Sequence record: NC_054921.1
Direction: 5' to 3' (one strand)
Source of the DNA: Escherichia phage vB_EcoM_IME537
DNA: 64,000 nt
Position 1 is the stretch's first letter; every line of letters starts with the position of its first letter. The notes beneath the pieces are model-generated. The model worked only from the letters and a program-made list of their open reading frames with translations. It did no database searches and was not told where the DNA came from. A program made the translations under genes and the position numbers. Below, piece after piece: positions 46,318 to 46,773 of this stretch.

Positions 46318-46773
46318 TTATTTTAAATCATCTGCCCAATCGAGTTTAAGAGGCTCTTTATATTCACGATCTAATACGACCGGAATTTGTACATCACCGC
46401 TAAATGATAAGGGTCCAACATTATAAGACAATGTTATATGCGGTGTGTAATCATCAAAATCATGTGTAGCACCTAGTGCCCGCGCATACATGTGTCGACA
46501 GCGCAGATATTCAGAATCTAGCACAAGTACAAGAGTCGATCCATCTTGTGTTTTCCATACTTCTAAATGTCCAGAAGAAGCTACTTCAAAACTTCCGCTT
46601 GATGGAACATACGGAACATTTACTCTTGAATAACATATGGTCGAATGAATTTTTTCTCTAGGAACTGGATTAGGAACACGTAAAGAGCGCTGAAGTTCTT
46701 CCAGCGCATCAAGTGTTAATTCTGAAAACTTAGCTGCTACATAAAGACCCGTTGAAAAGTCTTTAAATTCCAT
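46318..46773 (-). CDS. 57B: gp57B; 2H-phosphoesterase, known in T4 as the anti-CBASS nuclease Acb1
   Basis: 151 aa; two H-x-T/S motifs (HST, HIT); T4 synteny next to 57A. Confidence 0.75.

Follow-up and report, generated by a model that had tools for sequence, protein, structure and literature searches.

The open reading frame at 46318..46773 of Escherichia phage vB_EcoM_IME537 (NC_054921.1) is almost certainly acb1, gene 57B of phage T4, and its product is predicted to be a small metal-independent phosphodiesterase of the 2H family. The gene is a copy of a characterised counter-defence enzyme that is already known, and the preliminary description, which had proposed as much from two short motifs and from gene position, was correct in its call and leaves nothing new to claim for the gene. 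By "the window" we mean the whole stretch of 64,000 nucleotides that was analysed, and all positions are counted from its first letter. That the phage has anti-CBASS activity can very safely be expected from the identity of its protein to the T4 enzyme.

46318..46773, minus strand: acb1 (gene 57B), an ORF of 456 nt with an ATG start, 151 codons plus stop

Identity of the gene

Compared directly, with NC_000866 as the T4 reference genome, the 151-aa product equals residues 2-152 of T4 gp57B (NP_049750.1) at 151 of 151 positions. The Pfam family PF23474, 'Anti-CBASS protein Acb1', matches the same product with E=2.6e-60 and 202.7 bits, where the gathering score is 27, and the match takes in the entire profile (positions 1-144 of 144) and residues 8-149 of the protein. 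Among solved structures the closest is that of Acb1 from Erwinia phage FBB1 (PDB 7T26, the apo form, and 7T27, with an analogue of 3'3'-cGAMP), with E=4.1e-62 and 68% identity over residues 8-148; identity at that level to 7T26 across 141 residues, with a single gap of one residue, points to a compact 2H-phosphoesterase fold. No NCBIfam model matches either the Acb1 of the window or its Acb2, which is discussed below. It is the complete identity to T4 gp57B, taken together with the full-length Pfam match, that decides what the gene is, and not the pair of motifs. No feature of the sequence speaks against Acb1. The preliminary description had also equated T4 gp57B with the described Acb1, and rightly: Hobbs et al. 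2022 name gene 57B, NP_049750.1 (Nature 605:522, PMC9117128).

A different function might be read from existing annotation. RefSeq labels T4 57B and many of its orthologues 'RNA ligase', the family phrog_755, described in the same words, matches our protein with E=5.2e-68, Acb1 and LigT-like enzymes share a fold family, and a tRNA cluster lies about 1.6 kb from acb1, so that one could imagine a LigT-like 2H enzyme working on RNA, as a 2'-5' RNA ligase or a 2',3'-cyclic phosphodiesterase, perhaps in tRNA repair. But the label is inherited from the name of the 2H/LigT superfamily and has no assay behind it, Pfam returns Acb1 and no other family for the 151-aa protein at E<=0.1, with LigT and 2',5'-RNA-ligase among the families that are missing, and the identical T4 protein cleaves cyclic oligonucleotides in infected cells and is needed only on CBASS hosts. 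We consider an RNA substrate very improbable and reject the 'RNA ligase' reading, because there is no LigT-type Pfam match and the T4 experiments point to cyclic oligonucleotides; Acb1 may have a secondary, minor activity on RNA ends.

Having settled on Acb1, we note how often the gene goes by another name. A tblastn search of a phage collection found the protein in 1,469 records, 497 of them at 99% identity or more, and among the remaining matches identity falls as low as about 31%, in phages of Vibrio, Aeromonas, Acinetobacter and Salicola. In deposited T4-like genomes the 57B orthologues are mostly labelled 'hypothetical protein' or 'RNA ligase', and the names 'anti-CBASS protein Acb1' and 'putative phosphodiesterase' appear in occasional records only. 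The present assignment supplies the correct functional label for a commonly mislabelled gene; its value lies in that correction of annotation, and it opens no new question.

Active site and ligand pocket

The preliminary description had reported a 151-aa ORF with HST and HIT motifs, and we located both the ORF and the two motifs.

46639..46647, minus strand: first catalytic motif, H43-S44-T45 (HST), equivalent to T4 H44/T46
46432..46440, minus strand: second catalytic motif, H112-I113-T114 (HIT), equivalent to T4 H113/T115

H-x-[TS] occurs exactly twice in the protein, and the two occurrences are separated by 69 residues. Taken by itself such a pair is weak evidence for Acb1, because 4.4% of shuffles of the same 151 residues also yield two HxT/S motifs that lie 55-85 residues apart. 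The signature had been given as H-x-T/S; the two motifs are indeed present, but the published site is HxT/HxT, and T is the third residue of each motif in our protein. In the alignment with T4 Acb1 both catalytic histidines are retained, the H and T of the HST motif are invariant across the T4 and FBB1 proteins, and the HIT motif aligns with its counterparts in both.

Published work on T4 Acb1 places a tetrad of H44, T46, H113 and T115 under the scissile phosphate, and assigns base stacking to Y12, W74, F107 and W147, a contact with adenine N6 to E141, and closure over the ligand to a C-terminal lid formed by residues 145-152 (PMC9117128). Numbering in the window protein is T4 numbering minus 1, and the equivalents Y11, W73, F106, W146 and E140 are all present, as is the lid, LDWADDLK, which is the same as in T4. 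Since the two proteins are identical over all 151 residues, the catalytic histidines and threonines and every published ligand-contact residue are kept.

If the protein works as its T4 twin does, it would bind the cyclic di- and trinucleotides that serve as alarm signals in CBASS, a bacterial defence (3'3'-cGAMP, cUA, cAAA), in a U-shaped pocket that the C-terminal lid closes, with the bases stacked on the Y/W/F/W side chains. The bound cyclic nucleotide would be distorted, such that the H-x-T/H-x-T tetrad makes the 2'-OH of an adenosine attack the adjacent 3'-5' phosphodiester, and the ring would open by way of a 2',3'-cyclic phosphate intermediate to give a linear product with a 3'-phosphate, for example GpAp. 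With the signal removed, CBASS effectors would stay inactive and the infected cell would survive until the phage cycle is complete. This chemistry, a metal-independent 2H phosphodiesterase with a linear GpAp product, was established on the T4 protein, and T4 57B was shown to be the enzyme behind cyclic-oligonucleotide cleavage in infected cells (PMC9117128). In published work Acb1 prevents activation of the effectors Cap5, Cap4 and CapV, and T4 lacking acb1 plates more than 300-fold less efficiently, a defect specific to hosts that carry CBASS. A separate transposon screen agrees: 57B was dispensable on K-12 and depleted on a CBASS host. The cleavage and infection assays that bear on our phage have already been published on the T4 protein, which has the same sequence apart from a further Met that the T4 annotation places at the N-terminus.

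The 57A/57B junction

The window and T4 were compared over 581 aligned bases, where there are a handful of differences, six of them within the acb1 ORF. All six are synonymous, because the two proteins are identical, and such a pattern is consistent with purifying selection on acb1. A seventh change, G->A, falls at the junction of 57A and 57B, where GAAGAATGATGGAA in T4 corresponds to GAAGAATAATGGAA in the window. It turns ATGATG into ATAATG and the 57A stop from TGA into TAA, and the first Met annotated in T4 is lost.

46771..46775, minus strand: TAATG junction, at which the TAA stop of 57A overlaps the ATG of acb1 by 1 base

With the first of T4's two consecutive ATGs gone, the window gene begins at the codon that matches T4 Met2, and translation in this phage presumably starts there. 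In T4, by comparison, the annotated 57B start lies one Met earlier, within ATGATG, and overlaps the TGA stop of 57A by 4 nt. The crystallised FBB1 construct began at G8 (PMC9117128), so the extreme N-terminus of Acb1 is unlikely to matter for activity.

Loss of T4's annotated first ATG, ATGATG having become ATAATG, could be taken as a sign that acb1 is silenced or poorly expressed in the window phage. Yet a second ATG stands in frame and overlaps the new TAA stop of 57A (TAATG), which is a typical coupling arrangement, and the ORF is intact and differs from T4 by synonymous changes only. In T6 and in phage JLBYU31 the gene likewise measures 456 nt and overlaps 57A by 1 nt (the T6 junction being taken as ATAATG from gene coordinates), and 497 phage records encode a protein that is at least 99% identical. 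Damage to the gene seems to us the least credible of the readings considered here, and we reject the idea of a lost start codon and a dead gene: the ORF is intact and evolving synonymously, and the same allele is found in T6. An expressed acb1 is the reading we keep, and the ATAATG junction is a common allele and not damage, as the shared gene length and overlap in T6 and JLBYU31 indicate.

Gene neighbourhood and expression

The genome around acb1 is T4-like (Tequatrovirus), with 98.1% identity to T6 over the surrounding 3 kb and 95-97% identity to several T4-like coliphages over the surrounding 25 kb. The T4 gene order 3-1-57A-57B-ip is kept, with acb1 placed between 57A, its immediate upstream neighbour, and the ip locus, and the position next to 57A that the preliminary description had given for the gene is borne out by the Pfam match of its neighbour.

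46773..47015, minus strand: gene 57A (tail-fibre assembly chaperone; PF17594, E=2.6e-50), directly upstream of acb1
47015..47740, minus strand: gene 1 (dNMP kinase; PF21448, E=5e-106), upstream of 57A in the same orientation
47371..47378, minus strand: TATAAATA, a late-promoter-like motif within gene 1, 356 nt upstream of the 57A start, counted from the gene 1 stop
46266..46295, minus strand: 13-bp hairpin, an inverted repeat 23 nt downstream of the acb1 stop
46304 to 46276: early-promoter-like TTTACA-17-TATTAT, overlapping the hairpin and facing the next gene

A scan for terminator-like sites found none between genes 1, 57A and 57B, and acb1 and 57A are probably co-transcribed; the overlapping stop and start suggest that acb1 is also translationally coupled to 57A. 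Expression of T4 57B/acb1 is mainly middle and late in published work, with cGAMP-cleaving activity from about 15 min, and middle or late expression is likewise to be expected in the window phage. Around acb1 neither sigma-70-like sites (14, with 12.1 expected) nor terminator-like sites (1, with 1.8 expected) depart from chance.

The octamer within gene 1 fits the T4 late-promoter consensus. Such motifs number 13 in the window against 11.2 expected, which is not above chance, and the offset of 356 nt is the same in T4. The conserved position is suggestive of a late promoter inside gene 1.

Downstream of acb1 the hairpin is predicted to be stable: the RNA of the surrounding 76 nt folds at -20.5 kcal/mol (z=-4.9), and none of 200 shuffles was as stable. 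This hairpin and promoter-like element is kept in T4 with one substitution. An element of about 70 nt occurs here in three copies that are 62-80% alike (45635-45705, 45933-46003 and 46263-46333), each made up of a hairpin and, overlapping it, an early-promoter-like TTTACA-17-TAnTAT, and each bounding a small cassette gene downstream of acb1. The three copies resemble the 'promoter-early stem-loop' shuffling elements of T4-type phages. The ipI locus itself (45678..46245, minus strand) has two small internal-head-protein genes, both of which start MKTFKEF.

45988..46245, minus strand: internal-head-protein gene, 85 aa, phrog_3499
45678..45911, minus strand: internal-head-protein gene, 77 aa, phrog_8111

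T6 has the same two-gene arrangement, whereas T4 has a single ipI, and the locus presumably corresponds to the hypervariable site for ip cassettes known from T-even phages.

Several other parts of the window were noted in passing. Eight tRNA genes lie at 43314-44670 on the minus strand (Arg, Met(cat), Thr, Ser, Pro, Gly, Leu, Gln), with a 221-aa GIY-YIG ORF at 43393..44058 between tRNA-Arg and the others, in the T4 position of segB; the tRNA with the cat anticodon stands where T4 annotates tRNA-Ile, and the tRNA complement is unlike those of T6 and JLBYU31. A 157-aa DUF7412 protein (PF24183, E=5.7e-96) is encoded at 36992..37465 on the minus strand, just before a 164-aa ORF at 37543..38037 that we take, from its position and size, as the putative lysozyme gene e. 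T4 has denV, ipII and ipIII in this stretch, a difference that points to the replacement of a module. At 32976..33443 on the minus strand, the position of Tk.4, a protein with a macro domain (PF01661, E=2.9e-6) is encoded; T4 annotation gives Tk.4 as a phosphatase with an A1pp motif.

Acb2 and the counter-defence pair

The window phage encodes the full pair of T4 anti-CBASS proteins, Acb1 and Acb2.

35132..35398, minus strand: vs.4 (Acb2, a cyclic-nucleotide sponge; PF24729 Acb2_Tad1_hairpin, E=1.6e-19)

Acb2 serves the same purpose as Acb1, removal of the CBASS signal, with an unrelated fold, and it acts by sequestration of the signal, where Acb1 acts by hydrolysis. The window protein is identical to T4 NP_049728.1 at 84 of 88 residues, the substitutions being A43V, D45N, C49Y and L60I. 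In T4, vs.4 lies between regB and e, an interval in which the T6 annotation shows no gene. A phage with both proteins should resist many CBASS systems, a prediction that can help in judging host range and in choosing phages for therapy.

A study of the Panoptes defence found that T4 acb2 is needed to trigger that defence and acb1 is not, and that over-expressed Acb1 reduced colony formation. Two further readings can be offered, which we hold to be unlikely, if less so than either of the alternatives rejected above. The first concerns the ATAATG junction shared with T6: if termination of 57A ordinarily drives translation of Acb1 from the codon that matches T4 Met2, the dosage of Acb1 would be tied to expression of the tail-fibre chaperone. 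In the second, an invariant Acb1 beside an Acb2 with four substitutions relative to T4 would reflect selection on the sponge, and not on the nuclease, by decoy-sensing defences such as Panoptes.

Comparison with known Acb1 proteins

The more distant end of the family is represented by structures 9Q2G and 9Q2Y, of 165 aa and deposited as 'Anti-CBASS protein Acb1', whose similarity to the window protein is marginal (E=0.004 and 0.028) and which belong to a distant branch; both histidine motifs nonetheless align with the same spacing. FBB1 Acb1 is much closer and shares with the window protein both HxT motifs as well as Y11, E140 and W146 (window numbering). About a third of its positions differ, mostly at the surface, and the differences include two conservative aromatic swaps, F for W73 and Y for F106. 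T4 is the nearest comparison: its acb1 encodes the same protein over 151 residues, including the tetrad, the stacking residues, E141 and the lid, and the gene has the same place after 57A and gene 1, with the same hairpin and promoter element downstream.
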